A stretch of DNA of 64,000 bases from an uncultured Acidobacteriota bacterium (GTDB taxonomy: Bacteria; Acidobacteriota; Thermoanaerobaculia; Multivoradales; SZUA-115): contig CAWDVR010000003.1 in assembly GCA_963805975.1 (NCBI GenBank), positions 32,001 to 96,000 on the forward strand, read 5' to 3'. The notes under the pieces are model-generated. The model ran no database searches and was not told the origin of the DNA. It saw only the letters and a program-made list of their open reading frames with translations. The first letter of the stretch is position 1; each line of letters begins with the position of its first letter. This document shows, one piece after another, positions 22,778 to 40,643 of the stretch. Position numbers and translations under genes: made by a program.

Positions 22778-22780
22778 CAG

Positions 22781-23689
<909 letters not shown>

Positions 23690-23738
23690 AATCACCCGGT
23701 TCCGCGCACCACCCCACTGCCTCTCAGGGGAGAAGCGA

Positions 23739-24905: not shown

Positions 24906-24986
24906 GAGACTTGCCGCGCCAGGGCGCTTCCTCCAAGCTGCCGGATTTCCACGGATTTCTGGACCCATTTTCTTGAACTTCGTCCG

Positions 24987-25352
24987 GTGCACGAGCTGTC
25001 GATAGCGCTCGCCGTGGTGGAGACGGTGAGCGAGCGATTGCTCGGCGAAACCCCCGACGGGAAAGGCCCGCCGCGGGTCGAGAGCGTGACGCTCGCCGTG
25101 GGCGCGCTCTCGGGTGTCGATTGCGGCGCGCTGCGCTTCGCCTTTCCCGAGGCCACGGCCGGAACGGCGCTCGCCGGCGCGGCGCTCGAGATCGAGGAGA
25201 TCGGCGTCGTGGCCTTCTGCCCGAGCTGTGAGCAAGAGCAGGCGATCCCCAACGTGCGGCGCCTGCGCTGCCCGGTCTGCCGCACCCCCACGCCGCGCAT
25301 CGTGAGGGGACGAGAGCTCGAGGTCCTGCGGCTGGCGGTGGAGGAAGGGTAA
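24987..25352 (+). CDS. hypA: HypA-family nickel metallochaperone (GhaA-like)
   Basis: MHELSIA N-terminus; CPSC and CPVC; GRELEV. Confidence 0.9.
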   Translation: MHELSIALAVVETVSERLLGETPDGKGPPRVESVTLAVGALSGVDCGALRFAFPEATAGTALAGAALEIEEIGVVAFCPSCEQEQAIPNVRRLRCPVCRTPTPRIVRGRELEVLRLAVEEG

Positions 25353-25370: not shown

Positions 25371-25473
25371 TGGATTCCCGCTTGCGCGGGAATGACGAGT
25401 CACGGCGCTCGCCTGCCGGGCTCTTGGCGTTACCGAACTGGGGCTCCGTCATTCCCGCGCAAGCGGGAATCCA
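25371..25473. repeat. Inverted pair of ATTCCC-N8-GGGAAT (dRS3/REP-like) repeats
   Basis: TGGATTCCCGCTTGCGCGGGAATGACG (25371-25397) and its exact reverse complement (25447-25473). Confidence 0.88.
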
Positions 25474-27118
25474 TCTCTGCCGCCGCCCGCACGTCCTCGT
25501 CCGAGTCGCGGGTGAGGATCTCAAGGATCTCCTCCGAGGTGGCTGGATGTGCTGCCACGGCAGTGCGGATGGTGGCGACGGGGTCTCGGGCGAGCGTGAT
25601 CAGGACGGCGGCGGAGAGGTCCGAGCGCTTCACCACCGCCCAGCGCACGGCGGGTGAGATGTCCTGCGCGAGGGCCGCGAGCACGTCCTCGACGGCCGCT
25701 TCGTGGATGGCCACGGCCGTCCGGGTCTGGGGGTCAGCGTCGCTCGCGAGCAGAGCCAGCAGCGCGGCGGGGCAGGCGGAATGCCGGGCGGCGAGACGGC
25801 GGCCCCAGGGGCCGAGGGCCGCGAGCCGCTCGAGGTCCGACGCAGAGAGGTGGGGATCGGCCGCCGCGGGCTCGTAGCCATCCATCTCCCGCGCGCTGCC
25901 CGCGCTCAGCAACAGTTCCAGCACCGGTCCGGGCAGCCGCGGGTTTCGTGCCGCGGCCTGGCGGACGAGGAGATCGGCGTCGGCTGCCAGCCGGGCGAGG
26001 TCCTCCGTGCTCGTCGCCGGGTGCCGTGCGGCCAACAGCCGCCCCCAGGCGCCGGAGCGCGCGAGCCGGGAGAGCTCGGAGCCGGCTAGGCCGGGGTCCG
26101 GCTCTCCCAGGGTCGAGAGTGTCTCGCTCGCTCCCGCTCGGCGCAGCAGCTCGCGGTGCGCCGCCGGGAAGCTCGGGTGCGCGGCGGCCGCTTCCCGCAC
26201 CCGTCCGGCCCCGTGCTCGGCGAGGCGTGCGAGCAGCTCGGCAGGGGCAGCGGAGTGGCGGGCGATGGCGGAGAGCCTCTCGCTGTCGTCCTCGTCCGCG
26301 GCCAGCAGCAGGAGCGCCGCAGCGGGAGCCCCTGGATTGCCGAGCACGGCCTGCTGTACGGAGAGGTCGTCGTCCTCCGCGAGCCGGAGGAGCGCCGCCG
26401 GGCAGGCGGTGTTGGTGGCCAGTGCGGCGCGAGTGGCCGCATCGACGTCCCTGGCGAGGCGTGTGACCTCTTCCTCCGTGAGGTCCGGCAGGCCGGCCGC
26501 GAGCCGGCGCGCCAACGGCCCGAGGCTCGAGAGCGCGGCTCGTTCGCCAGGGGACAACGATCGGGAAGCGGCTCCGACCGTCACTAGGTCCGGAGCGGCG
26601 CCGGCGGCTAGCAGGAGCGCCAGCGCCGCGGCCGAGACCGGGCTCGAAGGAGCGCGCACCAGCGCCGCCTGGCGTACAGCCACTTCCGCGTCAGCCAGCA
26701 GACCGGCAAGGATCTCGGAAGGCAGAGCCGGGTGGGCCGCGAGGTCGGCGCGCAGGCTGGCGCTGGGGTGCCCCGCCAAGGAAATCAGGGTAGCGGGCGG
26801 CGTCGCCGGATGGCGAGCCGCGAGCCGCTGGCCCCACGCGCCGCCCTCGGCAAGCCGCGCCAGCACCTCCGGCGGCAGCGTGGGGTCGGGCGGCGCGAAG
26901 GAAGAGAGGTCCGCGCTCGACCCCGCGCGCCGCAGCAGGGCCAGCTCCTCGGCAGGGAATTCCGGATCAGCTGCCGCACGGCGCCGCACCCAGAGCTTGT
27001 CGTCGAGGGCGAGGCGAAGGAGCGCATCGACCGGAGCCTCGAGGTCCCGCGCCGCCTCGAGGCACGGCGCTGGCGCCACGCTGGCTGCGAATCGGTAAGG
27101 CTGCTGGCGCTCGCTCAT
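25430..27118 (-). CDS. Leucine-rich-variant/HEAT-like repeat protein
   Basis: Start MSERQQPY at 27118; repeated VRxAAAxHPxxP / LxxLAxD units. Confidence 0.8.
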   Translation of the reverse strand: MSERQQPYRFAASVAPAPCLEAARDLEAPVDALLRLALDDKLWVRRRAAADPEFPAEELALLRRAGSSADLSSFAPPDPTLPPEVLARLAEGGAWGQRLAARHPATPPATLISLAGHPSASLRADLAAHPALPSEILAGLLADAEVAVRQAALVRAPSSPVSAAALALLLAAGAAPDLVTVGAASRSLSPGERAALSSLGPLARRLAAGLPDLTEEEVTRLARDVDAATRAALATNTACPAALLRLAEDDDLSVQQAVLGNPGAPAAALLLLAADEDDSERLSAIARHSAAPAELLARLAEHGAGRVREAAAAHPSFPAAHRELLRRAGASETLSTLGEPDPGLAGSELSRLARSGAWGRLLAARHPATSTEDLARLAADADLLVRQAAARNPRLPGPVLELLLSAGSAREMDGYEPAAADPHLSASDLERLAALGPWGRRLAARHSACPAALLALLASDADPQTRTAVAIHEAAVEDVLAALAQDISPAVRWAVVKRSDLSAAVLITLARDPVATIRTAVAAHPATSEEILEILTRDSDEDVRAAAEMDSRLRGNDGAPVR

Positions 27119-27129
27119 CGCCCGCGAGT

Positions 27130-28206
27130 CTAGCCGGCCGCCCGGATCTCGCAGGGAGCTGGCGACCGAGCTTCGCTCGCTACAGAGCGCCTCACGCCCC
27201 GGCTGAGGAATCGATCGAGGTCCGGGATGAACACCGTGCCGGCTTCGAGCTGGAAGACGCCGCGGACCAGCGAGCGGTCGAGCAGGCGGCCGGTGGCGTT
27301 GACCTGGTTGGGCAGCGGCAGGCTCTCGACCCGCACCTCGGGCCGCACCGGGAAGCCCAGCTTGAGCGGCACGCGCGCGCCGCGGGCCACCAGCAGCCGG
27401 CTCTCGCCCTCGAAGAACGAGGGCCCGGCGCCCATGCGCAGCGAGAGGTCGATCACCGGCACCACCTCGTCGCGGAAGGGAGCCAGCCCCAGCAGGTAGG
27501 GTGGCGCGCCCGGCACCCGCAGCAGCGGCTGCGGGCGCACGATCTCCTGCACCTGGGAGAGCGACAGGCCGAAGAGCACTGGCGCCTCGCCTCCCGGCGA
27601 GGTGGAGAAGAGCAGCAGCCGGCGAGGTCCGGCGGCGGCCGACTGGGGTGCCCCGCTTCCCCGAGATGGGGTTCCGTCGGGCACGGTCCCGGGAGCGGAG
27701 GATTCCGGCACCTCCCAGGGCTCGGCGGGGGAAGCATCTCCTCCGGGGACGAGCCGCTCGGCGGCGAGAACCAGGGCGAGGCGGCCGGAGAGCCGGGCCA
27801 CGGCTTCGAGCGGCGAGCCCGCGGCGCGGGTGACGAGCCGCGGCAGGGCCAGCAGGTTCGCGGCGCCCACCTCCTCGGTGCGCTCGACCCGCTCCACCAT
27901 CAGCCCGAAGGGCCCGCGCCGCCCGTCGAGCAGCACCACGGGGCCGAACCGATCGCGTGCCGGGAGCGGCGAGCCGACGAGCGCTGCCAGCCGGTAGACC
28001 GGGACGCCGCTGCCGTTGTCTCCCGCGCCGCCCGTGCGCAGGCGGCCCGCGAGCATCCCACCGGTGTCGCCCTCCGCCGCGGGCAGCATCCCCTCGCCAC
28101 GCTCGAGCCCGAGGACGCGTGCCATGGGCAGGCAGTAGGTCTCGCCCCCGGCCTGGCAGGCGAGAAGTGCTACCGGCCCGCCGCTCGGCCCGGACGACGG
28201 GCTCAA
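27130..28206 (-). CDS. cheW: Tandem CheW-domain protein
   Basis: TTG start overlapping the CheA stop; two CheW domains (YCLPMARV...FGLMVERV; FGLSLSQVQEIV...VPGAPPYLLGLAPFRDEVVPVIDL). Confidence 0.8.
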   Translation of the reverse strand: MSPSSGPSGGPVALLACQAGGETYCLPMARVLGLERGEGMLPAAEGDTGGMLAGRLRTGGAGDNGSGVPVYRLAALVGSPLPARDRFGPVVLLDGRRGPFGLMVERVERTEEVGAANLLALPRLVTRAAGSPLEAVARLSGRLALVLAAERLVPGGDASPAEPWEVPESSAPGTVPDGTPSRGSGAPQSAAAGPRRLLLFSTSPGGEAPVLFGLSLSQVQEIVRPQPLLRVPGAPPYLLGLAPFRDEVVPVIDLSLRMGAGPSFFEGESRLLVARGARVPLKLGFPVRPEVRVESLPLPNQVNATGRLLDRSLVRGVFQLEAGTVFIPDLDRFLSRGVRRSVASEARSPAPCEIRAAG

Positions 28207-31049
28207 GGCGCCGGCTCTCCGTCGAGCGGCGCCGGTAGATGGGCGCCGGCCCTGGGCGGTACACCGGGCACGGCCGGTGCGGCCACGGCGCGGGCGCCGA
28301 GGCGGCGAAGGATGGCGAGCAGGGCCTCGTCCTGGAAGGGTTTGACCACGTAGTCCGCCACCCCGAGCTCGAAGGCGCGCTGGCGGTGCTTGTCGCCGGC
28401 CCGCGAGGTGAGCATCACGACCGGGATGCCGGCCAGCGCCGGCTGGCCCTTGAGCGTCGCCACCAGCTCGTAGCCGTCCATGCGCGGCATCTCGATGTCG
28501 AGCAGCAGGACGTCCGGCGGCTGGCTCGCGTGCTGGAGGATCTCGAGCGCCTCGACGCCGTCGCGGGCGGTGGTCGGGCGGATGCCCGCGCCGCGCAGCA
28601 GGGCGGAGAGCACCCGGCGCACGGAGAGCGAGTCGTCGACGATCATCACCTCGAGCGCCCGCGCGCCGCGGCGGCGGGGCTGGAGCGCCGCCGCCCGGCT
28701 GCGGGCGGCGACCCGCACGGCATCGCGGGCCTTGCGCTCCACCAGCTCGGCGGGGGCGAGGATCAGCACCACGCTGCCGTCGCCCATGAGCGTGGCGCCG
28801 GTCAGGCCGGGCACGCGCTTGAGGTGCGGGCCCAGGCCCTTGACCACCACCTCGCGGGCCTCGAGCAGGGTCTCGACCACCAGCGCGTACTTGCGGCCAC
28901 CGAGCCGGACCACGAGCACCGGCAAATGCACGTCGCCGGCCGCCACGGCCGGGGCGTCCGTCCCACCCAGGGCCTCGGCGAGATGGATCACGGGCAGCAC
29001 CTCGTCGCCGGCCCGCAGCACGGGCTCCTGGCCCACGCTCTCGAGGTCGCGGCGGTCGGCGCGGAGGATCTGCGTCACCACGGCGAGCGGCACGGCATAG
29101 CGCCGGCCGCCGGCCGCCACCATCAGCACCTTGAGGATCGCCAGGCTGACCGGCAGGCGGATCGAGACCCGGGTGCCTGCGCCGGGCGTGGACTGGAGGG
29201 CGACCGAGCCTTTCATCCGCTCGACCGTGGTCTTGACCACGTCGAGGCCGACGCCGCGGCCGGAGACCTCGCTGACCTCGCCGGCGGTCGAGAAGCCGGG
29301 CAGGAAGAGGAGCTCGCTCACCTCGTCGGGGCCGAGGCCCGCGGCTTCCTGCGGTCCGACGTAGCCCTGGGCCACCGCCGCCTCGCGGATCGAGTCGGTA
29401 TCGAGCCCGGCGCCGTCGTCCTCGACGGTCAGCACCACCTCGGTGCCCTCGTGGGTGGCGGCGAGCCGCAACCGCCCGCGCTCCGGCTTGCCTGCGGCGC
29501 GGCGCAGCGCCGGCGGCTCGAGGCCGTGATCGACGGCATTCCGCATCAGGTGGAGCAGCGGGTCGGCGATCTCTTCGAGCACCGTCTTGTCGAGTTCGAC
29601 GTGGCTGCCTTCGATGAGCAGCTCGGCCGACTTGCCCTGCTGCTGCGCGGTCACGCGCACGGCACGTTCGAGGCGGGCGGCGAGGGTGCCCAGGGGCACC
29701 ATGCGCAGGCGCAGGAGGCCGTCCTGCACCTCGCTGGTCAGGCGCGAGAGGCGGGCCAGATAGCCGTCGAAGTCGCCGATGGTGCCGGTGAGCTCGCCGG
29801 AGAGGGCGGCGATGTCGCTGCCGGTCTCCCCCAGCTCGCGGGTGATCAGGTGGAGCTCGGTGTAGCGGTCGAGCTCCAGCTCGTCGAAGCCGGTGGTTCC
29901 CTTGCCGTTCGTGCCCTGGTGCGCCGCGTCGTAGCGGGCACCGCCGGCCGCGGCGCCCAGGGCGCGGAAGCCGCCGCCCCATGGCTTCCCGCCACCTAGG
30001 GCCGCGGCCTCGTAGCCGGTCTCGAGCCGCCCCGAGATGCGGCGCAGCCGCGCCACCGAGAGGTCGAGCTCGCCCACCTCGCGAGTCAAGGTGCCGAAGT
30101 GCTGCTCGAAGGTCGAGCGGTTCACCACCAGCTCGGAGACCAGGCGCACCAGCTCTTCGAGGCGGTCCCAGGGAACGCGCAGCGGAGCAACGCGCAGGGG
30201 AGCGGTCCGCGCCGCGGGAGCCGCCGTGCCGTTCGAGCGCGTCTCCTCCGAAAGCTCCCTGTAGCTCGGCGGCTCTGGCAGCGGGCGCTCGGTGGCCTCG
30301 TCGCCCAGCCGCTCGCGATAGCGCCGGTAGATCCCGCCGGTGGCCGCCGACTCGAGGTCGCCGCCGGTCGCCACCAGGTCGGAGAGCTCGTCGGCCGTCG
30401 CGTAGAGCAGGCCGAGGTCGGCTGGGGAGACCGGTGTGTCGGCCTCGACCAGCAGATCGAGCAGGTCTTCCATGCGGTGCGCCAGCCGGGAGACGGCGCC
30501 AAAGCCCACCAGCGCCGCGGTGCCTTTGAGCGTGTGGACGCTCCGGCGGATCTCGGCCAGCGGCGGCCGGAGCGCGGGCGCGGCCGCGAGCGCGGCAAGC
30601 GCCGTGGCCACCACCGACAGGTGGTCCTGGGCCTCGTCGAGGAAGGACTCGGCGAGCTCCGGCGAGACCTCCGCCAGCGACAGGCCGAGGGCGGGCCCGG
30701 GAGCGAGCTCGGGGGCTGGCCGGCGCTCGCTGACGACGCCGTCGAGATAGCTCTCGATCTCGGCGACGGCGGCGAGGAGCGCGGCCTCGAGCTCGCGGCC
30801 TGGCGCCAGAGCGCCGCTCCCCAGGGCCTCGAGCTGCGCCTCGAGCCGGCCGGCCATACCGCCCAGGGCGGGCAGCCCCACCATCGAGGCGGCGCCCTTG
30901 ATGCTGTGCGCCAGGCGGTGCGCCTCGGCGACGGATTTACCGCTCGCTGGGGCGCCGCGCGCCGCTTCGATGCCGGCGGTGATCGCCGGCAGGTAGCTCT
31001 TCGCCTCTTCGACGAAGCCGGCCAGGAGCTCCGGATCGATCTCGTGCAT
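28203..31049 (-). CDS. cheA: Hybrid CheA-REC kinase (ChpA-like) with two Hpt domains
   Basis: AHSIKGAA and VHTLKGTA Hpt sites; LLHLMRNAVDHG, GFST...SGRGVGLDVV; CheW and C-terminal receiver domains. Confidence 0.95.
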   Translation of the reverse strand: MHEIDPELLAGFVEEAKSYLPAITAGIEAARGAPASGKSVAEAHRLAHSIKGAASMVGLPALGGMAGRLEAQLEALGSGALAPGRELEAALLAAVAEIESYLDGVVSERRPAPELAPGPALGLSLAEVSPELAESFLDEAQDHLSVVATALAALAAAPALRPPLAEIRRSVHTLKGTAALVGFGAVSRLAHRMEDLLDLLVEADTPVSPADLGLLYATADELSDLVATGGDLESAATGGIYRRYRERLGDEATERPLPEPPSYRELSEETRSNGTAAPAARTAPLRVAPLRVPWDRLEELVRLVSELVVNRSTFEQHFGTLTREVGELDLSVARLRRISGRLETGYEAAALGGGKPWGGGFRALGAAAGGARYDAAHQGTNGKGTTGFDELELDRYTELHLITRELGETGSDIAALSGELTGTIGDFDGYLARLSRLTSEVQDGLLRLRMVPLGTLAARLERAVRVTAQQQGKSAELLIEGSHVELDKTVLEEIADPLLHLMRNAVDHGLEPPALRRAAGKPERGRLRLAATHEGTEVVLTVEDDGAGLDTDSIREAAVAQGYVGPQEAAGLGPDEVSELLFLPGFSTAGEVSEVSGRGVGLDVVKTTVERMKGSVALQSTPGAGTRVSIRLPVSLAILKVLMVAAGGRRYAVPLAVVTQILRADRRDLESVGQEPVLRAGDEVLPVIHLAEALGGTDAPAVAAGDVHLPVLVVRLGGRKYALVVETLLEAREVVVKGLGPHLKRVPGLTGATLMGDGSVVLILAPAELVERKARDAVRVAARSRAAALQPRRRGARALEVMIVDDSLSVRRVLSALLRGAGIRPTTARDGVEALEILQHASQPPDVLLLDIEMPRMDGYELVATLKGQPALAGIPVVMLTSRAGDKHRQRAFELGVADYVVKPFQDEALLAILRRLGARAVAAPAVPGVPPRAGAHLPAPLDGEPAP

Positions 31050-31058
31050 GCCGCCCTC

Positions 31059-32978
31059 CTATGCCGCGCGTTCCGGCAGCCGCAGCCGGTCGGCCAGCGA
31101 GCGCTCCGGCAGGCGGAAGCGGTCCATGGACTCGCGCAGGTCGTCGGCGAGCCCGGCCAGGTTGCGGATCGAGACCGCGGCCTGCTTGGTGCCGGCGGCG
31201 GTGCGCTGGGTGCCCTGGGAGATGTCGTTCATCGCCCGCGCCACACCCTCGGAGCCGCGCGCCTGCTGCTTGGCGGCGAGCGAGATCGACTGGATGATCT
31301 CCGCCAGCCGGTTGGACACGCTCTGGATTGCGCCCAGCGCCTGGCCGGCCTCGTTGGCGAGCGAGGAGCCGCCCACCACCTCGCGCGTGGTCGCCTCCAT
31401 GGCGGCCACCGCCTCGGTGGTCTCGCTCTGGATCGACTTGATCAGCGTGCCGATGCGCTTGGTGGCCTCGGCCGAGCGCTCGGCCAGCCGCTCCACTTCC
31501 TCGGCCACCACTGCGAAGCCGCGGCCGGCCTCGCCGGCCATGGCCGCCTGGATCGAGGCGTTCAAGGCCAGGATGCTGGTGCGGTCGGCGATGTCGCCGA
31601 TCAACTGTACGATCTCGCCGACCTCCTGCGAGCTCTCGCCCAGCCGCTTGATGCGCTTGGCGGTCTCCTGCACCTGCTGGCGGATCGAGCTCATACCTTC
31701 GATGGTCTTCGACACCGCCTCGGCGCCCTGCTTGGCGGTGGCGAGCGCCTGGTCGGCCACGCTCGCGGCCTGCACCGAGCTCTCCGACACCTGGGCCACG
31801 GAGACGGCGAGCTCGTCGACCGCCGCCGAGGTGCCGGCGAGCTCGGAGGACTGCCGCTCGCTGCCCTCGGCCAGGTGCTGGGCGGTGGACTGGATCTGGT
31901 TGGCGGCCGAGCTCACCTGGAACGTGGTGTCGCGGGCGGTGGAGATGATGCGCCGCAGCTCGGAGATCATCAGGTTGAAGGAGTCGGCGATGGCGCCGGT
32001 CACGTCGGCCGTCACCTCGGCCTCGCGGGTGAGGTCGCCGTCGGCGACGCCCGACACCTCGTCGAGCAGCTTCACGATCGAGCCCTGGATGCTGTCGCGC
32101 TCCTCGCGCGACTGGATCAGCGACAGGGTGTTGTCGAGCATGGCGTTGAGCGAGCGCGAGGTGACGCCCAGCTCGTCTCTGCCCAGCACCTCGGCGCGGG
32201 CCCCGAAGTCGCCGATGCCGATGCGGGTGAAGGTCTGGCTGATCGAGTTCACCTGCCGCAGCACCAGGCGGGCGAGGTAGAAGGCCGCGGCCAGCGCCAG
32301 GATGGTGAGCAGGATGCCGGTGATGCCGATGTTGCGGCGCACGGCGGCGAGCACCGTCTCGGTGGAGGCGAAGGCGCTCTGGGCGCTGGTGTTCGAGAGG
32401 TCGGCGAACTTCTTGTTGACCGCCACCAGGTCGGCGAACCCGCGCTCGATCTCGCTGCTGCGGTCGGCGAGATCGGCGCGGCCGATCACCTGGCCGGCGA
32501 GCAGCCGCTGGCGCAGCGGCGCGAGCTGGGCATAGGCGCCGTCGATGCGATCGAGGTAGGTCTGCTCGTCCTTCTGCAGGCTCGACTGGCCGAGGCGCGC
32601 CAGGGCGGCGGTGAACTCGGGGCTCACCGTCGTCTTCCATTCCGTCTTGTACTTCTCGTGCAGCTTGACCATGCCCTCTTCCTCGCGCCGCACCAGGGCC
32701 TCGAGCGTGCCCCGCTCGCTCGCCGAGAGGTCGGCCCGGGTGAGCTGGTCGAGCGCGCCGGTCAGCTTCTCGCGGTGCAGGTTGGCCTCGTCGAGGTCCA
32801 TGATCGGCAGCAGCATGAACCCGTAGAGGTTGTCGAACTCGTACTTGAGGACGTCGATGCCGTCGCGCTTGATGGCGCCGGCGCCGGTGAGCGCCACGCC
32901 GGCGATCAGGATCACGGCGAGCGGCGTGAGCACGGCGATCAGGGTGAACTTGCCAAAGAGCTTCAGGTTGCGAAACAC
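31059..32978 (-). CDS. Methyl-accepting chemotaxis protein, PilJ-like
   Basis: Two TM segments, periplasmic helical sensor, HAMP domains, ILALNASIQAAMAGEAGRGFAVVAEEV. Confidence 0.93.
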   Translation of the reverse strand: MFRNLKLFGKFTLIAVLTPLAVILIAGVALTGAGAIKRDGIDVLKYEFDNLYGFMLLPIMDLDEANLHREKLTGALDQLTRADLSASERGTLEALVRREEEGMVKLHEKYKTEWKTTVSPEFTAALARLGQSSLQKDEQTYLDRIDGAYAQLAPLRQRLLAGQVIGRADLADRSSEIERGFADLVAVNKKFADLSNTSAQSAFASTETVLAAVRRNIGITGILLTILALAAAFYLARLVLRQVNSISQTFTRIGIGDFGARAEVLGRDELGVTSRSLNAMLDNTLSLIQSREERDSIQGSIVKLLDEVSGVADGDLTREAEVTADVTGAIADSFNLMISELRRIISTARDTTFQVSSAANQIQSTAQHLAEGSERQSSELAGTSAAVDELAVSVAQVSESSVQAASVADQALATAKQGAEAVSKTIEGMSSIRQQVQETAKRIKRLGESSQEVGEIVQLIGDIADRTSILALNASIQAAMAGEAGRGFAVVAEEVERLAERSAEATKRIGTLIKSIQSETTEAVAAMEATTREVVGGSSLANEAGQALGAIQSVSNRLAEIIQSISLAAKQQARGSEGVARAMNDISQGTQRTAAGTKQAAVSIRNLAGLADDLRESMDRFRLPERSLADRLRLPERAA

Positions 32979-33069: not shown

Positions 33070-33696
33070 TCACGCGGCCTCCACGGCGCCCAGCGCATCA
33101 GCGGCCAGCAGGCGCGCGACGTCGAGCACGGCGACCACTTCGCCGCCCTGCTCGACGACGCCGGTGAGATAGATCGACGCGGGGTCGTCCAGCAGCGCCG
33201 CGGCGCGCACCACGCGCGAAGCCGCGAAGCTCGCCAGGCCCGCCACCTGGTCCACCACCAGGCCGGTGTAGGGCTCGGGGCCCGCGCCGCGCACCACCAG
33301 CAGGCGCCCCATGGCGGGGCCCTCGGCGGCGGCGCCCAGGAAGAGGGCGAGGTCGACCACCGACAGGATCTCGCCGCGCAGATTGATGACGCCGAGCACC
33401 CAGGGCGGCAGGTGGGGTACCGGAGTGACGGGCGGCACCGACCCGACCTCGATCACGGCGCCGATCGGCACCGCGTAGCGGGCGCGGCCGAGCGAGAACA
33501 CGATGTAGCGCTCGAGGGCGGGCTCTTCCGGCGCCGGCGGCGGCCATCCGCCCGCGTCGGCCCCCGCGTCGATTCCTGGGCCGGCGCCGCGGGCCTTGCC
33601 GGGCTCCGCCACGGGGTGGCTCGCCACCTCGGCGTCGAGCGCGCCCAGGAGATCGGCCAGCGCGTCGGCCGAAGAGCCGTGATCGTCGTCGTTCAT
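33070..33696 (-). CDS. cheW: CheW coupling protein
   Basis: VTPVPHLPPWVLGVINLRGEILSVVDL; GGAGGGAG RBS before ATG 33696. Confidence 0.9.
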   Translation of the reverse strand: MNDDDHGSSADALADLLGALDAEVASHPVAEPGKARGAGPGIDAGADAGGWPPPAPEEPALERYIVFSLGRARYAVPIGAVIEVGSVPPVTPVPHLPPWVLGVINLRGEILSVVDLALFLGAAAEGPAMGRLLVVRGAGPEPYTGLVVDQVAGLASFAASRVVRAAALLDDPASIYLTGVVEQGGEVVAVLDVARLLAADALGAVEAA

Positions 33697-33724
33697 CGGG
33701 TGTCTCCCTCCTCCGGCCTCGCGG

Positions 33725-34090
33725 CTACAGGTAGCGGGCCGCGGCGGCGCGCAGCTCGTCATCCGAGAACGGCTTCGTCAGGTACTCGTCGGCACCCTGC
33801 TTCAGGCCCCAGAAGCGGTCGCTGTCCTGTGTCTTGCTGGTGACCAGCACGATCTTGATGTCCTGGGTGTCGGGAGCGGTCTTCAACTGGCGGCAGACCT
33901 GGAAGCCGTTTTTCTTCGGCAGCACCACGTCCAGGAAGATCAGGTCCGGCCGCCCGCTGGCCGCTTTCTCGAGCGCTTCCTCGCCATCGGCGGCGGTCAG
34001 CAGGCGGTAGCCGCGGGGGGCGAGCGCCTGGGTCATGAGCTTCAGGTCGGTCGGGCTGTCGTCGACTAAGAGGATGGTCTGGCCGGGCAT
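33725..34090 (-). CDS. Single-domain response regulator, PilH-like
   Basis: LLVDDS, FLDVVLP, VTSKTQDSDRFWGLKQGADEYLTKP. Confidence 0.9.
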   Translation of the reverse strand: MPGQTILLVDDSPTDLKLMTQALAPRGYRLLTAADGEEALEKAASGRPDLIFLDVVLPKKNGFQVCRQLKTAPDTQDIKIVLVTSKTQDSDRFWGLKQGADEYLTKPFSDDELRAAAARYL

Positions 34091-34111: not shown

Positions 34112-35002
34112 TCAGAAAGGGATGCGGTCGATCGTGAGCGCCAGGTCGCGGAGGAAGACGCCGTAGCTCTCCCGCCACTCGCCCGCGGCGGTGGCCGACC
34201 GCAGCCGGCGGCCGGAGAGGTCGAGGAAGGTCTCGAAGACCAGGCCCATGGCGCGGGCGATCTCCTGGAAGGAGCGGCTGCGCTCGGCCTCGTCGGTGGC
34301 CCACAGGCGATAGAAGCTGGCGGCGTTGGCCGTGGAGAGCCGGTTGGCCTGGGCGGTCAGCACGCGGGCCATCGGGTGCTTGCCGACGGCGCTCTGGAGC
34401 ACCGGCGCCAGGGCGGCGCTCGAAGCCTCGTCCCCCCGGCCCCCGGCGCTCTCGGTGAAGGCGACCGCCTGGTTGATCATGTCGGCCAGCATCTCGAGGG
34501 CGACGAGCGGCCGCTTCCTCCCCTTTTCCGCCAGCCGCGACATGCCCTGCTCGAGCCGCGACAGCAGGAGCATCAGCTCGCCTTCGAGCGCCTCGTCGCT
34601 CTGCTGCTCCGGCCAGGCGAGCTCGTCGTTGGCGATCGGCAGGGTCGGCCCGAGGTCGGCGGCCATCAGCCAGGCGCTCTCCGCGCGGTCGCGCACGCTC
34701 TCGTCCATCTGGCGGGCCGCTTCGAGGAGCAGGTGGCGCCAGCCGGTGCGGATGCTGTGCGCCGGCGAGCGCACGCGGTCGGTGATGTGGAACGTGCCGT
34801 CCTGCCAGGTGAGGAGCTGGAACGCCGCCTCCTCGCCCTGGAGCGGGCCCAGGAGGGCGTGGACGATCTCACCCTCTTGCAGGTAGAGGACACCTTCCTC
34901 GCCGCGGCGCCGCACCACCAGGCCCACCGAGCGCCGTTCCGTACAGAGGAGTTGCACGACGCTCGAGATCTCGAAGTCCTTGATGTCGCCCTCAACCGCC
35001 AT
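34112..35002 (-). CDS. DUF4388 (PATAN-like) domain protein
   Basis: MAVEGDIKDFEISSVVQLL...GVLYLQEGEIVHA...GEEAAFQLLTWQDGTF...LLLEAARQMDE. Confidence 0.85.
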   Translation of the reverse strand: MAVEGDIKDFEISSVVQLLCTERRSVGLVVRRRGEEGVLYLQEGEIVHALLGPLQGEEAAFQLLTWQDGTFHITDRVRSPAHSIRTGWRHLLLEAARQMDESVRDRAESAWLMAADLGPTLPIANDELAWPEQQSDEALEGELMLLLSRLEQGMSRLAEKGRKRPLVALEMLADMINQAVAFTESAGGRGDEASSAALAPVLQSAVGKHPMARVLTAQANRLSTANAASFYRLWATDEAERSRSFQEIARAMGLVFETFLDLSGRRLRSATAAGEWRESYGVFLRDLALTIDRIPF

Positions 35003-36023
35003 GCGCTTCTCGCGGGCAGTGCTGCTCCACCGCTTTCACCAGATGGGCAGGGTCGAAGGGCTTGGTGATGTAGTCGGTGGCGCCGGCCAGGCGGCCGCGC
35101 ACCTTGTCGAAGAAGCCGTCCCGGCCCGAGAGCATCACCACCGGCACGCCGCGGGTCGCGGCGTTGGCGCGCACCAGCTTGCAGAGCTGGTAGCCGTCCA
35201 TGTGCGGCATCGAGACGTCGAGCAGGATCAGGTCCGGCACCGCGTCGTCGAGCTTGGCGAGAGCCTGGAGCGCGTTGCCGGCCACCAGCACCTCGTGGCC
35301 CTGGCGCTCGAGGGCGACGCCGACGATCTTGAGCACCGTCGGGCTGTCGTCCACCACCAGGATGGTGCGTCGCGGCTGGCCTGGAGCGGCCGGCCGGCGC
35401 AGGTAGGCGGCGGCGCGGACGGCCGCCTCCTGGCGGCGGGCGAGCTCCTCGATCGCCGCCGAGAGCCTGCCGTCCTCGGGCTTGAGCTGGCGTGCCACCC
35501 GCAGCCGGGTCAGGCCTTCGTAGGTCCGCCGCAGGTTGAGATAGCCGAGGGCGATCGCCAGGTGCACCTCGAAGGTGACGGCGTCGCCGGAGAGCCCCTC
35601 CAGCCGTTCGAGGGCGCCCTTCAGGATGTCGCCGTCCGCCTCGGTGTTGGCGAGCAGGGAGTCGAGGTCGTCGAGCCGCACCACCGCCCGGCACTGCGGG
35701 CACTTCGCGACCTCGACCAGCGACTCGCCGTGACAGAACGGGCAGCGCCAGTGCTTACGTTTCTGGGCGCTGCCGGCCCGCACCCGCTCGAGCCAGCTCC
35801 GGGTGCGCTCGTCGGCCGGGTTGACGGCCAGCGCCTTCTCGAGAAAGGAAACTGTCTCGCCGCGGTGCGTCGCCACCGAGGCGAGCCACAGCCAGGCCAG
35901 CTCTTCGTTCGGTGCCAGCTCGGCCGCCGCCAGCAGCTTCTCTCTCGCCGTCGCCTTGTCCCCCTGCTTGGCGGCGGCGATCCCCGTCTTGAGCAGATCC
36001 CGTTGTCGATTCACAGCCAGCAT
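34992..36023 (-). CDS. PilG-like response regulator with N-terminal TPR and Zn-ribbon
   Basis: TPR (NEELAWLWLA), CPFC..CPQC, receiver with MLSGRDGFFDKVRGRLAGATDYITKPF. Confidence 0.88.
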   Translation of the reverse strand: MLAVNRQRDLLKTGIAAAKQGDKATAREKLLAAAELAPNEELAWLWLASVATHRGETVSFLEKALAVNPADERTRSWLERVRAGSAQKRKHWRCPFCHGESLVEVAKCPQCRAVVRLDDLDSLLANTEADGDILKGALERLEGLSGDAVTFEVHLAIALGYLNLRRTYEGLTRLRVARQLKPEDGRLSAAIEELARRQEAAVRAAAYLRRPAAPGQPRRTILVVDDSPTVLKIVGVALERQGHEVLVAGNALQALAKLDDAVPDLILLDVSMPHMDGYQLCKLVRANAATRGVPVVMLSGRDGFFDKVRGRLAGATDYITKPFDPAHLVKAVEQHCPREAHGG

Positions 36024-36051
36024 GCTCGCGCCTCTCTCTCAGTGTCCCGGC

Positions 36052-36207
36052 TCAGGTGCGGACGAACTTGTCGATCCCTTCCTCGCGCCACACCCGCAGG
36101 GTCATCTGGTCCTTGGGGTCGATGGGCACGCCGATGGCGTTGACCGGTACGTTGTGGTTCCTCTGGATCTCGATCCAGGTGCGCTTGATGGCGGGGTCCA
36201 ATGGCAT
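36052..36207 (-). CDS. Unannotated 51-aa protein
   Basis: MPLDPAIKRTWIEIQRNHNVPVNAIGVPIDPKDQMTLRVWREEGIDKFVRT; GAGGGA RBS; strongly G/C-ending codons; fills the gap between the M16 and PilG-like genes. Confidence 0.8.
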   Translation of the reverse strand: MPLDPAIKRTWIEIQRNHNVPVNAIGVPIDPKDQMTLRVWREEGIDKFVRT

Positions 36208-36225
36208 GGTGATCCCTCGGGAGAT

Positions 36226-37527
36226 TTAGGAGACAGCTTCGAGCCGGGCATCGGCCAGAAGGTCGTGGAACGAGCCGGCGCCGGCGTCCAGGCGGCCTTC
36301 GTCGGCCACCACGGCGAGCGCCGCGCGCTCGAGGCTCGGGGCGAGCCAGGTTTCGGCCAGCTCTACCAGGTGCCGGCGCCGGACCTGGGAGAGGGCGGTC
36401 ACCACCTCCTCGTCCGGCAGCGGCCGGCCGAAGTAGAGCTCCTGGGTGGCGAGGCGGCTCATGCGGGTCGCCGAGCTCTCGGCGGCGATCAGGTGCTGGT
36501 TGGTGAGCGCGGTGACCGCGCGCGCCAGCTCTTCGTCGTCGACCGGCTCGTCGCCGCTCGCCAGCCGGGCGAGCTCGGCGGCGACCAGCCGCAGCACCGC
36601 CGGCAGGTTCTCCGGCGTGGTCGAGCCCTCGAGCAGCAGGACGCCACCCTGGGCGTAGGCCTGGTAGGAGCTGCCGATGGCGTAGACCAGCCCGCGCTCC
36701 TCGCGCACGCGCCGGAAGAGGCGCGAGCTGATGCCGCCGCCCAGCAGGCGGTCGAGCACGTGCAGGCGGTAGCGCTCGGGGGCGGTGAAGGCGAAGGCCG
36801 GCAGGGCGAGCGCGAAGTAGGCCTGCGAGATCGGCGCGTGGTGAACCACCGTGCCGCCGCGATGCGGGGCCGGCTGCGGGCGGCGCGGCGCGCTCTCGCC
36901 CAGGAGGCGCCAGAACGCGTCCCGGCTCTGGGCCACGAAGTCGGCGTGGTCGAGGTGGCCGGCGGCGGCGATCAGGGTACGGGCCGGGGTGTAATGGCGG
37001 GCCGCGAAGTAGATGGCGTCCTCGCGCGTCAGGCCGCGCACCGTCTCCGGCGAGCCGGCGATCGGCCGGCCCATCGGGTGCCCGCTCCAGGCGAGCTGCT
37101 TGACCAGATCCTCGGCGAAGTGCGGGGGCGAGTCGCGGCGCGCCTCGAGCTCGCAGGCGATGGTCTCCTTCTGCCGCTCGACGGCCGTCTCCGGAAAGGT
37201 GGAGCTCAGGAGCACGTCACCCAGGAGGTCGAGCGCGTGGTAGCGGTAGTCGTCGAGCACGTGGGCCGTCAGGCAGGTGTAGTCGCGGGTGACGAAGCCG
37301 CCGACCTGGCCCCCGGCACCGTCCATCAGCCGCGCGATCGCCAGCGCATCCCGGCTCGCCGTGCCCTGGAAGAGCAGGTGCTCGACCAGGTGGGCGATGC
37401 CGGAGGTGCCGCTCTCCTCGTCGGCCGGGCCGGCGTCGACCAGGACGCCGATCGAGATGGACCGCGAGCGTGGCATGGCCTCGGTGATCACCCGGATGCC
37501 GTTGTCGAGGACCGTTTTCTCGATCAA
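36226..37527 (-). CDS. M16B (pitrilysin/processing-peptidase-like) zinc metallopeptidase, cytoplasmic
   Basis: GIAHLVEHLLFQGT (HxxEH), glycine-rich LGGGISSRLF...REERGLVYAI; no signal peptide. Confidence 0.92.
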   Translation of the reverse strand: MIEKTVLDNGIRVITEAMPRSRSISIGVLVDAGPADEESGTSGIAHLVEHLLFQGTASRDALAIARLMDGAGGQVGGFVTRDYTCLTAHVLDDYRYHALDLLGDVLLSSTFPETAVERQKETIACELEARRDSPPHFAEDLVKQLAWSGHPMGRPIAGSPETVRGLTREDAIYFAARHYTPARTLIAAAGHLDHADFVAQSRDAFWRLLGESAPRRPQPAPHRGGTVVHHAPISQAYFALALPAFAFTAPERYRLHVLDRLLGGGISSRLFRRVREERGLVYAIGSSYQAYAQGGVLLLEGSTTPENLPAVLRLVAAELARLASGDEPVDDEELARAVTALTNQHLIAAESSATRMSRLATQELYFGRPLPDEEVVTALSQVRRRHLVELAETWLAPSLERAALAVVADEGRLDAGAGSFHDLLADARLEAVS

Positions 37528-37573
37528 GAGTCAAACTCCCGCTGTCGCGAGCAGTTGGCGTCGATCAAGACAC

Positions 37574-37596
37574 TCTAGTATGTTAAAAATACTAGA
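37574..37596. promoter_or_regulatory. AT-rich palindrome in the predicted leader of the M16/chemosensory operon
   Basis: TCTAGTAT-N7-ATACTAGA. Confidence 0.45.
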
Positions 37597-37652
37597 AATG
37601 TCGTGATACGAGCCGGTGCACTTCAGGCGTAGCTAGAAACAAGGCAAGACTC

Positions 37653-37668
37653 AGCAAGAGGCATACCA
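37653..37668 (-). promoter_or_regulatory. Putative sigma54 promoter for the M16/chemosensory operon
   Basis: Minus strand reads TGGTATGCCTCTTGCT (GG-N10-GC, TTGCT). Confidence 0.65.
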
Positions 37669-37740
37669 GTGAAGGGGACCGGGAAGGTTCGCTCTTTGCG
37701 CCCATTCTTGGCCACGCGTTGAAACGAATTCGTGTCACGT

Positions 37741-37776
37741 TGTCTGAGATTCAGACACACTGTCTGCTTTTAGGAG
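37741..37776. promoter_or_regulatory. Candidate tandem enhancer (UAS) for an NtrC-family activator
   Basis: Perfect TGTCTGA-GAT-TCAGACA plus a weaker GTCTGCTTTTAGGAG 20 bp away. Confidence 0.5.
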
Positions 37777-37782
37777 GACTGA

Positions 37783-39087
37783 TTGAGCCGAAGGAAACTT
37801 CTCTCGACTGCTGCGATCTGTGGGTTGGGGATCGGCCTGCTGGCGGCCCGGCGGCGCAACGCGCAGCTCGCACGCGAGAACCTCGCCCTGGAGAAGCGCC
37901 AGCGGGAAACCGACGAGGAAGTGCGGCTCCGGCAGGCGATCAGCAATGCGGCGCGCGAGTGGCAGCTCACCTTCGACGCCGTCGAGTCCGTGCTGCTGGT
38001 GATGGACGGCGAGGGTCGTGTGCGGCGCATGAACCGTGCCGCGAGCCTTCTCGCCGGCCGGCCCTACCGCGAGCTCCTCGGCCTCGAGGTGGGGGCGATC
38101 GGCGCCGGCGAGCCGTGGGCGACGGCCGCCGCCCTGGCGGCGGAGGTGGCGCAGGACCGGGCCTCGCGCACGCTTTCCGCCGTCGACCCGGCCGCCGGCA
38201 CCACGTGGGATTTGTCAGCTACGGTCTCTGGGTCGGCCACCGTTTCGGGGTCTGCCACGGTCTCGGGATCGGGTACGCGGGCTTCGGGTGCAGGGCACGG
38301 GGGGGCCGACCTGGACCACGTGATCCTGGTGGCGCGCGACGTCACCGGCCTGGTGCGCCTCCAGGAGTCGCTGCACAAGAGCGAGGTGATGTCGGCCATG
38401 GGCTCACTGGTGGCCGGTGTGGCCCACGAGGTCCGCAATCCCCTGTTCGGCATCTCGGCGGCGCTCGACGCTTTCGAGAGCCGCTTCGGCGACCGCGAGG
38501 ACTACGGCCGCTATCTCTACGTGCTGCGCAGCCAGCTCACCCGCCTCAACCGGCTGATGACCCAGCTCCTCGACTACGGCAAGCCGCCGCGGCTCGAGGT
38601 CGGCGCCGAGAGCCTCGCCGAGGTGCTGGCGGAGGCGATCGTCAACTGCTCGTCGCTCGCCGGCCAGCAACAGGTGGAGATCCAGCCGCGGCTCGCCGCC
38701 GATCTGCCGCCGGTGCCGATGGACCGCCAGCGCATGCTGCAGGTGCTCCAGAACCTGCTCGAGAACGCTATCCAGCACAGCCCGGCGCCCGGCGTGGTGG
38801 AGGTGGAAGGTGGGGTCGAGAACGGGACGGAGGCTCCCGCCCTGGTGTTCGCCATCCGCGACTCCGGCCCCGGCTTTCGGCCGGAAGACCTGCCCAAGGT
38901 CTTCGATCCCTTCTTCACCCGCCGCCGGGACGGGACCGGTCTCGGGCTCTCGATCGTCCATCGCATCGTCGAGCAGCACGGCGGAGCGATCCGGGCCGGC
39001 AACCGCGACGGCGGCGGCGGCGAGCTGCTGCTGCGCCTGCCGCTCGCCGAGCCTGGCACACCGGCCCTGCCGGCGAGCGGGCGATGA
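37783..39087 (+). CDS. PAS-domain sensor histidine kinase (NtrB-like)
   Basis: AGGAGG RBS; VAHEVRNPL H-box, NLLENAIQH, DSGPG, FDPFFT, GTGLGL. Confidence 0.93.
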   Translation: MSRRKLLSTAAICGLGIGLLAARRRNAQLARENLALEKRQRETDEEVRLRQAISNAAREWQLTFDAVESVLLVMDGEGRVRRMNRAASLLAGRPYRELLGLEVGAIGAGEPWATAAALAAEVAQDRASRTLSAVDPAAGTTWDLSATVSGSATVSGSATVSGSGTRASGAGHGGADLDHVILVARDVTGLVRLQESLHKSEVMSAMGSLVAGVAHEVRNPLFGISAALDAFESRFGDREDYGRYLYVLRSQLTRLNRLMTQLLDYGKPPRLEVGAESLAEVLAEAIVNCSSLAGQQQVEIQPRLAADLPPVPMDRQRMLQVLQNLLENAIQHSPAPGVVEVEGGVENGTEAPALVFAIRDSGPGFRPEDLPKVFDPFFTRRRDGTGLGLSIVHRIVEQHGGAIRAGNRDGGGGELLLRLPLAEPGTPALPASGR

Positions 39088-40442
39088 GAGCCCGCATCCT
39101 CCTGGTCGACGACCAGGACGCGATCCGCTTCGGCATCCGCGGCTATCTCGAGGCCAAGGGCTACGAGGTGGCGGAAGCCGCTACGCAACGCGAGGCCCTC
39201 GAGAAGCTGGCGGCGCAGCCGTTCGCGGCCGCGGTGGTCGATCACCACCTGCCGGACGGCAATGCCCTCGAGCTCCTGGCCGCCTTGAAGGAGGCCCACC
39301 TGCGGCTGCCGGTGGTGATCCTCACCGCCTACGGCTCGATCGACCTCGCGGTGGCGGCGATCCGCGAGGGTGCCGAGCACTTCCTGACCAAGCCGGTCGA
39401 GCTCTCGGCACTCGAGGTGCTTCTCGAGCGGGTGCTCGAGAACCAGCGCAACCGGCAGAAGACGCTCGCCGGGCGGGCCGGCGGCTTGCGGCGCCCGCTC
39501 GACCCGTTCGTGGGCACGAGCCGCGGCATCCGTGAGCTCAGGGCCCAGGCCGCCAAGGTGGTGGACAGCGAGAGCCCCCTCCTGATCCAGGGCGAGACCG
39601 GTTCGGGAAAGGGCGTGCTCGCCGCCTGGCTCCATGCCCATGGCCCGCGGGCGGACGAGGCCTTCGTGGACCTGAACTGCGCCGGCCTGTCCCGGGAGCT
39701 GCTGGAGAGCGAGCTCTTCGGCCACGTCAAGGGCGCTTTCACCGGCGCCGCGTTCCACAAGGCGGGCCTGTTCGAGGCCGCGCACCGCGGCTCGGTCTTC
39801 CTGGACGAGATCGGCGACCTCGAGCTCGGCGTCCAACCCAAGCTGCTCAAGGTGCTGGAGGAGAAGCGGTTCCGCCGGCTGGGCGACGTCAAGGACCGCA
39901 GCGTCGACATCCGGCTGATCTCGGCGACGCACTGGGACCTCTTCGCCCAGGTCGAGCAGCGGACCTTCCGCGGCGATCTCTACTACCGGCTGGCGGCGAT
40001 CCCGCTGGCGATCCCGCCGCTGCGCGAGAGGCTCGAAGACCTGCCGCAGCTCGTGGCCGACATCCTCGAGCGGCTGCGCCTGGAGCTGGGGAGGGGGGAG
40101 GTGGAGCTGACCGCCGAGGCCATGAAGGCGCTCGCGACCTACCGCTGGCCGGGCAACCTGCGCGAGCTGCGCAACGTGCTCGAGAGGGCCATCCTGCTGG
40201 CCGAGGGCGAGGTGGTAGACGCCGGCGACCTCCGCTTCGCGCAAGTCGCGACGGCGACCGAGGGGTTCGACACCCGCCTCACCCTGGAGCAGATGGAGCG
40301 GCGGCTCATCGAGCGGGTGCTCACCGAGGAAGGGGGCCGCGTGGCCCGTGCCGCCGAGCGCCTGGACGTGCCTCGCAGCACTCTCTACCAGAAGCTCAAA
40401 CGTTTCGGGATCGGCTTTCCAGAATCTGGACAGTCGTCCTGA
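39084..40442 (+). CDS. Sigma54-dependent response regulator (REC-AAA+-Fis HTH)
   Basis: Start MRARILLVDD, ATGA-coupled to the kinase; GETGSGK, ESELFGHVKGAFTGA, FLDEIG, WPGNLRELRN, HTH. Confidence 0.95.
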   Translation: MRARILLVDDQDAIRFGIRGYLEAKGYEVAEAATQREALEKLAAQPFAAAVVDHHLPDGNALELLAALKEAHLRLPVVILTAYGSIDLAVAAIREGAEHFLTKPVELSALEVLLERVLENQRNRQKTLAGRAGGLRRPLDPFVGTSRGIRELRAQAAKVVDSESPLLIQGETGSGKGVLAAWLHAHGPRADEAFVDLNCAGLSRELLESELFGHVKGAFTGAAFHKAGLFEAAHRGSVFLDEIGDLELGVQPKLLKVLEEKRFRRLGDVKDRSVDIRLISATHWDLFAQVEQRTFRGDLYYRLAAIPLAIPPLRERLEDLPQLVADILERLRLELGRGEVELTAEAMKALATYRWPGNLRELRNVLERAILLAEGEVVDAGDLRFAQVATATEGFDTRLTLEQMERRLIERVLTEEGGRVARAAERLDVPRSTLYQKLKRFGIGFPESGQSS

Positions 40443-40627: not shown

Positions 40628-40643
40628 TGGCACGTGGCTTGCG
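40628..40643 (+). promoter_or_regulatory. Sigma54 promoter
   Basis: TGGCACGTGGCTTGCG, matching TGGCACG-N4-TTGC. Confidence 0.75.

Follow-up and report, generated by a model that had tools for sequence, protein, structure and literature searches.

What is a gene of 51 codons doing between an M16 peptidase and the PilG-like regulator of a chemosensory operon? We take up this question for a stretch of 64,000 nucleotides from an uncultured Acidobacteriota bacterium, which we call the window and to which all coordinates refer. The small gene (the mini-gene) and its product (the mini-protein) lie among the following features.

27130..28200, minus strand: tandem CheW-CheW protein (start approximate)
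28203..31049, minus strand: CheA with two Hpt domains and a C-terminal receiver
31059..32978, minus strand: transmembrane methyl-accepting chemoreceptor (HAMP and MCP signal domains)
33070..33762, minus strand: CheW
33725..34090, minus strand: single-domain receiver (PilH/CheY-like)
34112..35002, minus strand: DUF4388 protein
34992..36023, minus strand: response regulator with TPR, Cys-pair region and receiver (PilG/PatA-like position)
36052..36207, minus strand: 51-aa mini-protein gene of an undescribed family, with a predicted helix-hairpin-helix-helix fold
36213..36218, minus strand: Shine-Dalgarno-like GAGGGA, 5 nt before the mini-gene ATG
36226..37527, minus strand: dedicated M16B (BHP-like) zinc peptidase, 433 aa, TTG start, no N-terminal extension
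37654..37668, minus strand: predicted sigma-54 -24/-12 promoter, 127 nt upstream of the M16 start
37783..39087, plus strand: divergent sensor histidine kinase, candidate activator of the operon
39084..40442, plus strand: NtrC-type sigma-54 activator (receiver-AAA+-Fis HTH)

Conservation of the mini-gene

The 51-aa peptide is encoded by the minus strand, from 36207 to 36052; the plus-strand translation of the same interval differs. The gap from the M16 stop to the mini-gene ATG is 18 nt, that from the mini-gene stop to the next gene is 28 nt, and the GC content at third codon positions is 0.94, compared with 0.92–0.97 in three neighbouring genes. An earlier, sequence-only reading of this DNA had pointed to the ribosome-binding site GAGGGA, the G/C-ending codons and the 18-nt spacing, all of which are reproduced here. 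It had also called the ORF hidden, which it is not: public gene callers do have it, the exact protein is already present in a protein collection, and an annotated homolog exists (hypothetical protein Despr_2337 of Desulfobulbus propionicus, WP_015725015.1). The homolog search proposed at that time finds 139 homologs from the single sequence and, with a profile, 1,276 homologous clusters at E ≤ 0.01 out of 1,326 candidates, every name among the matches listed being "hypothetical". Clustering at 50% leaves 86 representatives; some of the weakest matches among them are false positives from WD40 and repeat proteins. The same reading had recognised no domain in the peptide, and neither Pfam nor NCBIfam gives a match to it.

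The host genome carries a single copy. Across genomic copies the length from the aligned start is strikingly constant: 51 aa in 85/97, 52–55 aa in 11/97 and 65 aa in the last one. The start is ATG in 94 of 98 copies, and an RBS-like word precedes 92 of 97. Column identity at codon positions 1, 2 and 3 is 0.82, 0.91 and 0.52 respectively. The median dN/dS, for which a value below 1 had been set as a check beforehand, is 0.24, and none of the 123 unsaturated pairs (out of 4,753, the pairs being non-independent) reaches 1. By homology, start signals and substitution pattern, the 51-aa ORF is a genuine, conserved gene under purifying selection.

Predicted structure of the mini-protein and its fusions

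AlphaFold2 predicts helices at residues 5–16, 34–42 and 45–48 around a short hairpin (pLDDT 95, pTM 0.74). W11, Q15, P21, V22, G26, I29, W40 and G44 are kept in 93–98% of 59 distant representatives, and conservation goes down to 71% at N23 and A24. The near-invariant residues look like a folding core, not like a leader followed by a core peptide. The best PDB profile match has an E-value of 0.049, Foldseek gives no match at E ≤ 0.001, and structure comparison yields a best Z of 2.4 for VIA and a best value of 0.79 for Atlas, neither of which is meaningful; the absence of a fold match does not by itself establish a new fold. The mini-protein has a mass of 5,995 Da and, by rule of thumb, a volume of about 7,250 cubic angstroms, and we find in it no signal peptide and no hydrophobic stretch.

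The domain also occurs in larger proteins, each fusion being one protein sequence seen at the protein level. It is fused to a membrane-anchored periplasmic binding protein (P0133), and joined with an Smr domain (P0235), an FHA domain (P0281), a weakly SLT-like protein (P0286) and a helical region of no assigned family (P0273). Six further proteins (P0136, P0137, P0237, P0249, P0269 and P0284) combine it with a low-complexity linker ending in Tyr-Arg-Gly, one of them (P0249) with a weak DUF4278 match (E 0.021). A single sequence, P0132, joins it to a receiver, and this fusion is probably a lost stop codon. Taken together, these architectures suggest that the mini-domain is a portable binding module.

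The peptidase subfamily

The neighbouring enzyme carries the M16 domains PF00675 and PF05193. H46, E49, H50 and E126, which make up the HxxEH motif and the downstream Glu zinc ligand, are present in 61/61 subfamily members. Alignment to BHP places the substrate-binding Arg/Tyr pair of M16 enzymes, the RY pair, at R275 (61/61) and Y282 (60/61). The best PDB sequence match is 3HDI (E 1.4e-59 over residues 1–398), and the predicted structure (pLDDT 94), a two-domain clamshell half of about 430 aa, superposes on it with TM 0.90 and rmsd 1.7. The protein starts at BHP residue 1 and therefore has no export signal.

Members of the subfamily score at least 350 bits and generic orthologs at most 286 bits, and two genomes (G100 and G015) carry a subfamily and a generic M16 together. 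Thirty positions are conserved in a family-specific manner. Gly76 is found in 59/61 members, at a position where 63/63 generic relatives have Asn or Asp. Specifically, the substrate-binding strand begins with Gly-Gly (34), Gly-Ala (25) or Ser-Gly (2) in the subfamily (n = 61) and with Asn-Ala (52) or Asp-Ala (11) in the generic set (n = 63), so the Asn/Asp-Ala signature of generic BHP/YmxG proteins is missing from the subfamily. The generic Asn at position 76 presumably has a catalytic role, and a literature search found no text on the role of that Asn in M16 enzymes. Judged by these residues, the peptidase is a distinct M16B subfamily with an intact predicted zinc site, in which the Gly76 substitution could mean weak peptidase activity.

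We also considered, and dropped, a substrate-assisted catalysis in which Asn23 of the mini-protein replaces the missing Asn76. Position 23 is Asn in 71% and Asp in 19% of 59 distant homologs, it sits in the predicted hairpin turn, and the G008 peptidase has Gly76 beside Asp23-variant mini-genes. Individual loci depart from the usual peptidase arrangement: the gene is divergently oriented at L026, its ORF is shortened to 373 aa at L050, and L070 has extra M16 fragments upstream, with M16 and the mini-gene separated by a regulator gene.

The chemosensory operon and its host

The DUF4388 protein is of the PatA N-terminal type. CheA runs in the order two Hpt domains, dimerisation, HATPase, CheW and receiver, with no P2 match. 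Multiple Hpt domains, a C-terminal receiver and the lack of P2 are given in PMC10782961 as traits of the Tfp class and also of the ACF class. The host genome has five PilT-family matches over the cut-off, and FliG_C was not found in it (96% complete). By architecture and host genes the operon is a Tfp-like chemosensory system, with CheA traits that fit ACF too. Its output is probably type IV pilus behaviour, because five PilT-family genes and no FliG were found in the genome and the CheA matches the Tfp class.

The idea that the mini-gene and peptidase substitute for CheR/CheB adaptation was rejected: at L044 and L061 the module stands alongside CheR and CheB, and several operons without the module have no CheR/CheB either. 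Directly after the CheW-CheW gene lies a gene for a leucine-rich-repeat-variant (LRV) protein of about 567 aa (25430–27133, minus strand); it is matched in L002 only among the best 80 of 207 mini-gene loci and is thus no general part of the operon. Beyond it, the plus strand from 21689 to 25352 encodes in a row the permease and ATPase of an ABC transporter, an enzyme of the arginase family (PF00491) and HypA, a cluster reminiscent of those of nickel-dependent guanidine hydrolases.

Distribution and gene neighbourhood

A genome scan confirmed 207 mini-gene loci, the best 80 of which were used for context. These 80 come from Acidobacteriota, Desulfobacterota, Chloroflexota and Planctomycetota, with a few other labels. 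M16 and chemosensory genes, whose co-occurrence had been singled out for checking by the earlier reading, are both present at 58 of the 80; ten have chemosensory genes only, four have M16 only (on short or truncated contigs) and eight have neither. The nearest recognised upstream gene is M16 at 61 of the 80. The downstream gene varies by lineage: an RR-TPR regulator at 33, PilH at 23, MCP at nine, REC-DUF4388-REC at three, and another gene or the contig end at 12. The neighbours that recur over the 80 loci are chemosensory genes, ParA, CheR/CheB and sigma-54 activators; no conserved radical-SAM enzyme, RRE, exporter or second M16 subunit was found among the 25 selected representatives scanned with Pfam. 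The module is rare, the mini-gene being present in 2/201, 4/151 and 1/201 sampled genomes with the three centre genomes included, and of 82 pattern matches in viral contigs none was confirmed.

Several lineages arrange the genes in their own way. Tandem mini-gene copies occur at L008, L011, L013, L023, L060, L066 and L077, and also in G008 and G009. A Chloroflexota variant (L064, L077, L196; genome G008) carries Asp23 and has two or three mini-gene copies in each genome; its adjoining M16 is more divergent (44%) and its MCP is in pieces. Operons of the Chloroflexota type have a ParA-family ATPase inserted between PilH and CheW (L004–L008, L011, L012, L016, L036, L060, L066). At five loci from Desulfobacteraceae/Desulfatirhabdium (L024, L039, L040, L057, L073) the mini-gene comes right after a PAS-PAS sigma-54 activator, and at four of these five it is detached from the chemosensory operon. 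Short tandem heptamer repeats lie in the intergenic DNA just past the mini-gene stop at L015 and L083. A lone copy at L038 (genome G007, 10001–10198) is extended by 14 aa at the C terminus and has a sigma-54-type site of its own, and neither the peptidase subfamily nor PilH or MCP orthologs were found in that genome.

Pairing of mini-gene and peptidase

The association differs according to the gene from which it is viewed. From the peptidase side, 80 metagenome loci include 11 subfamily M16 genes, and all eight that can be tested have the mini-gene; at the other three the contig breaks off within M16 or shortly past it. Among the 553 genomes of three whole-genome samples, the subfamily occurs in three non-centre genomes, small counts from unbiased samples, and the mini-gene adjoins it in all three. 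Overall, the mini-gene adjoins 11/11 testable subfamily genes, and it stands beside 0 of 79 generic M16 loci (69 metagenome and 10 genome). Three other genomes (G011, G013, G015) have the peptidase without an adjacent mini-gene and the mini-gene elsewhere; they are not independent support, because it was the mini-gene that led to them.

Viewed from the mini-gene, 18 loci lack a local M16, and 15 of them were checked genome-wide. Six have a subfamily member elsewhere and nine have none, these nine being draft assemblies of unstated completeness, and four of the nine hold a generic BHP-like paralog as a possible substitute. L055 and L065 are compact MCP-mini-PilH-CheW-CheA clusters without a peptidase, and they differ from each other by 10 synonymous and 5 non-synonymous codons. 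Mini-protein length and motifs are unchanged in genomes without the subfamily peptidase; therefore the 51 residues need not reflect the limit of a peptidase chamber.

The two genes are also absent together. Counting as related any operon whose MCP scores at least 350 bits, we find seven operons in six genomes (G112 twice, G228, G275, G285, G328, G353) without both genes and with no remnant of either; the junctions are closed in five such operons of the class Desulfobacteria. Within the class of G011 the module is present in 3 of 8 genomes with a related operon. For the class of G008 an MCP search of 201 genomes gave no match, not even to G008, where the MCP is in pieces, and that sample is therefore uninformative on module-less operons.

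Finally, the two proteins diverge together. The partial rank correlation between mini-protein and M16, given MCP, PilH or CheA, is 0.36–0.49 (32–53 loci), and those between mini-protein and MCP, PilH or CheA given M16 are 0.10, 0.03 and -0.02; all were computed without a control for composition bias, and composition or linkage could also produce them. Adjacency alone would yield both co-divergence and joint loss, the evidence for pairing being wholly genomic. From the joint absences, the 11/11 adjacency and the peptidase-less mini-genes we infer an optional pair with a one-way dependence: the pathway apparently can do without the pair, the peptidase seems to depend on the mini-protein, and the mini-gene can evidently persist where the peptidase is missing. 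A functional tie of the mini-gene to M16 and to the chemosensory operon, one part of what the sequence-only reading had proposed, has good support from gene order, joint loss and co-divergence.

Transcription

A scan of 35900–37900, which covers the DNA just past the mini-gene stop, found no sigma-70 promoter and no intrinsic terminator. The predicted sigma-54 site upstream of M16 recurs in the same place at L002 with one change, next to a histidine kinase 80% and an NtrC-type activator 88% identical to those of the window, and the host genome encodes RpoN. The -24/-12 motif has a chance rate of about 0.01 per 400 nt in the host genome, and the window holds six such motifs (at 1032, 20396, 23368, 37654, 40628 and 58407) against 1.16 expected, with 0 of 100 shuffles reaching six. 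More widely, it lies upstream of 4/68 subfamily M16 genes, many of which are operon-internal, 4/40 non-adjacent mini-genes and 0/74 generic M16 genes, and it occurs in 1.4% of random windows. Because the pattern was written after some of those sites had been seen, the enrichment is post hoc. Upstream of operons headed by REC-DUF4388-REC the motif is found in 0 of 7 newly fetched regions and 1 of 6 earlier loci. Five mini-genes lie directly downstream of a gene for a PAS-type sigma-54 activator. A stable hairpin (z ≤ -2, by a crude shuffle) follows the stop in 32/96 mini-gene copies and in 3/55 controls.

Two details concern the divergent regulatory genes themselves. The motif at 40628–40642 (plus strand) precedes a small receiver gene just past the NtrC gene, and the histidine kinase (37783–39087, plus strand) has, between its PAS-like and kinase regions, three tandem copies of a six-residue unit.

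Interpretation

The reading that we prefer, at a little under even chances, is that the mini-protein is a folded signalling modulator of a Tfp-like pathway and that its level is set by the dedicated M16B peptidase. In this view the mini-gene and the M16B gene make up a two-gene module that Tfp-like chemosensory operons may carry or lack. The mini-protein, a predicted compact folded binding domain, is likely a modulator of the pathway; the peptidase probably engulfs and degrades it, and the duration of its effect would then depend on the peptidase. Both products would be cytoplasmic, judging from the lack of a signal peptide or hydrophobic stretch. RBS words, tandem copies and downstream hairpins suggest that many hosts produce more mini-protein than peptidase or pathway components would require one-to-one, in short an excess, and transcription at this locus may be sigma-54-driven from the divergent histidine kinase/NtrC pair. 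By its estimated volume the mini-protein would fit a BHP-sized chamber. PMC12731061 gives that chamber as roughly 10,000 cubic angstroms and IDE as a peptidase for substrates below 80 residues with a chamber of about 16,000 cubic angstroms. Several points count against this reading: a stable mini-protein fold may resist cleavage, the fusions of the mini-domain to large proteins are not enclosable whole, and the mini-gene of G007 (L038) stands in a genome in which no peptidase, PilH or MCP ortholog was found. The asymmetry of the pairing favours an effector with a dedicated protease over an obligate subunit or a precursor.

Alternatively, the mini-protein might be a stable partner of the peptidase (an inhibitor, an activator or an array-docking adaptor), the real substrates being other peptides or protein termini. 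We regard this as possible and rather doubtful. It would give the same adjacency, joint loss and co-divergence, a compact W/W/P-cored fold as modelled would suit a binding module, and the 30 family-specific peptidase positions, many of them aromatic or acidic (W147, D203, W206, Y237, Y365), might provide a docking site; the fusions to FHA, Smr, periplasmic-binding and SLT-like proteins are as expected of a portable tag. However, a pure subunit should be useless without its enzyme, yet the mini-gene is kept under apparent selection in peptidase-less clusters, and the extra copies listed above (L008, L011, L013, L023, L060, L066, L077, G008 and G009) suggest excess rather than a 1:1 ratio. Those same clusters raise the case that the two proteins make no contact, the mini-protein binding a core chemosensory or pilus component and the peptidase having a separate job, so that the genes are mere neighbours. 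Compact clusters do keep the mini-gene without a peptidase (L054, L055, L065, L076), the two genes lie apart in G011, G013 and G015, and the mini-protein is once naturally fused to a receiver (P0132). That fusion, however, resembles a lost stop codon; a subfamily peptidase without a mini-gene is never seen from the peptidase side (11/11), and the adjacency to M16 outlasts rearrangements that change all other neighbours. We therefore judge separate jobs to be unlikely.

The other part of the earlier proposal was an analogy with precursors of the PqqF and AlbE/F kind: the M16 enzyme would trim the mini-protein to a short active peptide, RiPP-like or an internal signal, as in PqqA/PqqF or subtilosin/AlbE-F. 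Small size, multiple or dispersed copies and a dedicated M16 with a seemingly intact zinc site next door would all fit, and M16B enzymes have precedent in peptide maturation according to PMC12731061. Folding-core conservation and the domain fusions nevertheless disfavour a precursor of the PqqA/subtilosin type. Conservation extends over the whole chain, from W11 to G44, with no split into leader and core; no modifying enzyme is found, nor an RRE, exporter or second M16 subunit, among the annotated recurring neighbours; an export signal is absent; and the mini-gene is kept where the peptidase is missing. This part of the proposal has thus become quite improbable. More improbable still is that the mini-protein is a decoy for receiver partners, mimicking the beta4-alpha4 face of a PilH-type receiver. 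MAFFT laid the family on the C-terminal half of receivers, and hhalign gave the same register of 21–24 columns for PilH- and PilG-type receivers, but with E 0.12–0.14 and a probability of 0.5% the match is not significant. Shuffled profiles often score as high (43 of 150 with columns shuffled, 29 of 100 with blocks shuffled), and an M16 profile outscores the receiver profile against the mini-protein, by chance.

Returning to the folded modulator removed by its own peptidase, we can picture a more specific and more doubtful form of it, a proteolytic timer. A 51-aa effector of new fold, its synthesis switched on in sigma-54-dependent bursts, would bias the pathway until the peptidase clears it, and the mini-domain fused to FHA, Smr or membrane-anchored sensors would be a portable tag to the circuit. 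If true, the timer would be a layer of chemosensory control separate from methylation, and it would provide a bacterial M16B enzyme with a defined, co-encoded regulatory substrate.

Beyond the timer, the locus matters in three respects. Little is settled about what prokaryotic M16 peptidases cleave physiologically (PMC12731061), and the module offers a candidate cognate substrate or partner for one of them. It points to an unrecognised accessory component of chemosensory systems in four little-studied phyla. It also adds a highly conserved mini-protein family with no fold match, of a length below many gene-calling cut-offs. Cultured carriers of the mini-gene exist in Desulfobulbus, Desulfoluna and Desulfonema.

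Comparison with known systems

A search of largely open-access literature, supplements aside, found no published description of the mini-protein family or of the pairing. The closest systems each share one aspect of the module. Tfp-class systems (Pseudomonas Pil-Chp and the cyanobacterial PatA-CheY-CheW-MCP-CheA type) likewise have a multi-Hpt CheA with a C-terminal receiver, and the two receiver regulators, DUF4388, CheW and MCP of the window operon extend the likeness; we know of no peptidase or mini-protein component in such systems, and the search found none. PqqA/PqqF and the subtilosin precursor with AlbE-AlbF also place a small gene beside an M16 gene, with multiple copies in some genomes. 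Here, in contrast, the chain is predicted to be folded and is conserved over its whole length, the M16 is single, the context is signalling and modifying enzymes were not found.

Bacteroides MdpA is likewise a cytoplasmic bacterial M16 with a regulatory role; it is a heterodimer acting on metabolic enzymes and on Cur, and its abstract mentions neither a co-encoded mini-protein nor a chemosensory link (PMC13081976). The nearest relative of the enzyme itself is BHP/YmxG (BH2405, PDB 3HDI), a homodimeric M16B "peptidasome" encoded, like the window enzyme, by a single gene. The HxxEH...E positions 46, 50 and 126 are common to the two (H46/H50/E126 in the BHP numbering of PMC12731061), and the table in that review lists no function or substrate for BHP. 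The window peptidase differs from BHP in belonging to a separate subfamily, in having Gly76 and in having a dedicated mini-gene and operon. Against these systems, the undescribed mini-protein family is best seen as part of a peptidase module that is accessory to a known class of signalling system, with a plausible mechanism.
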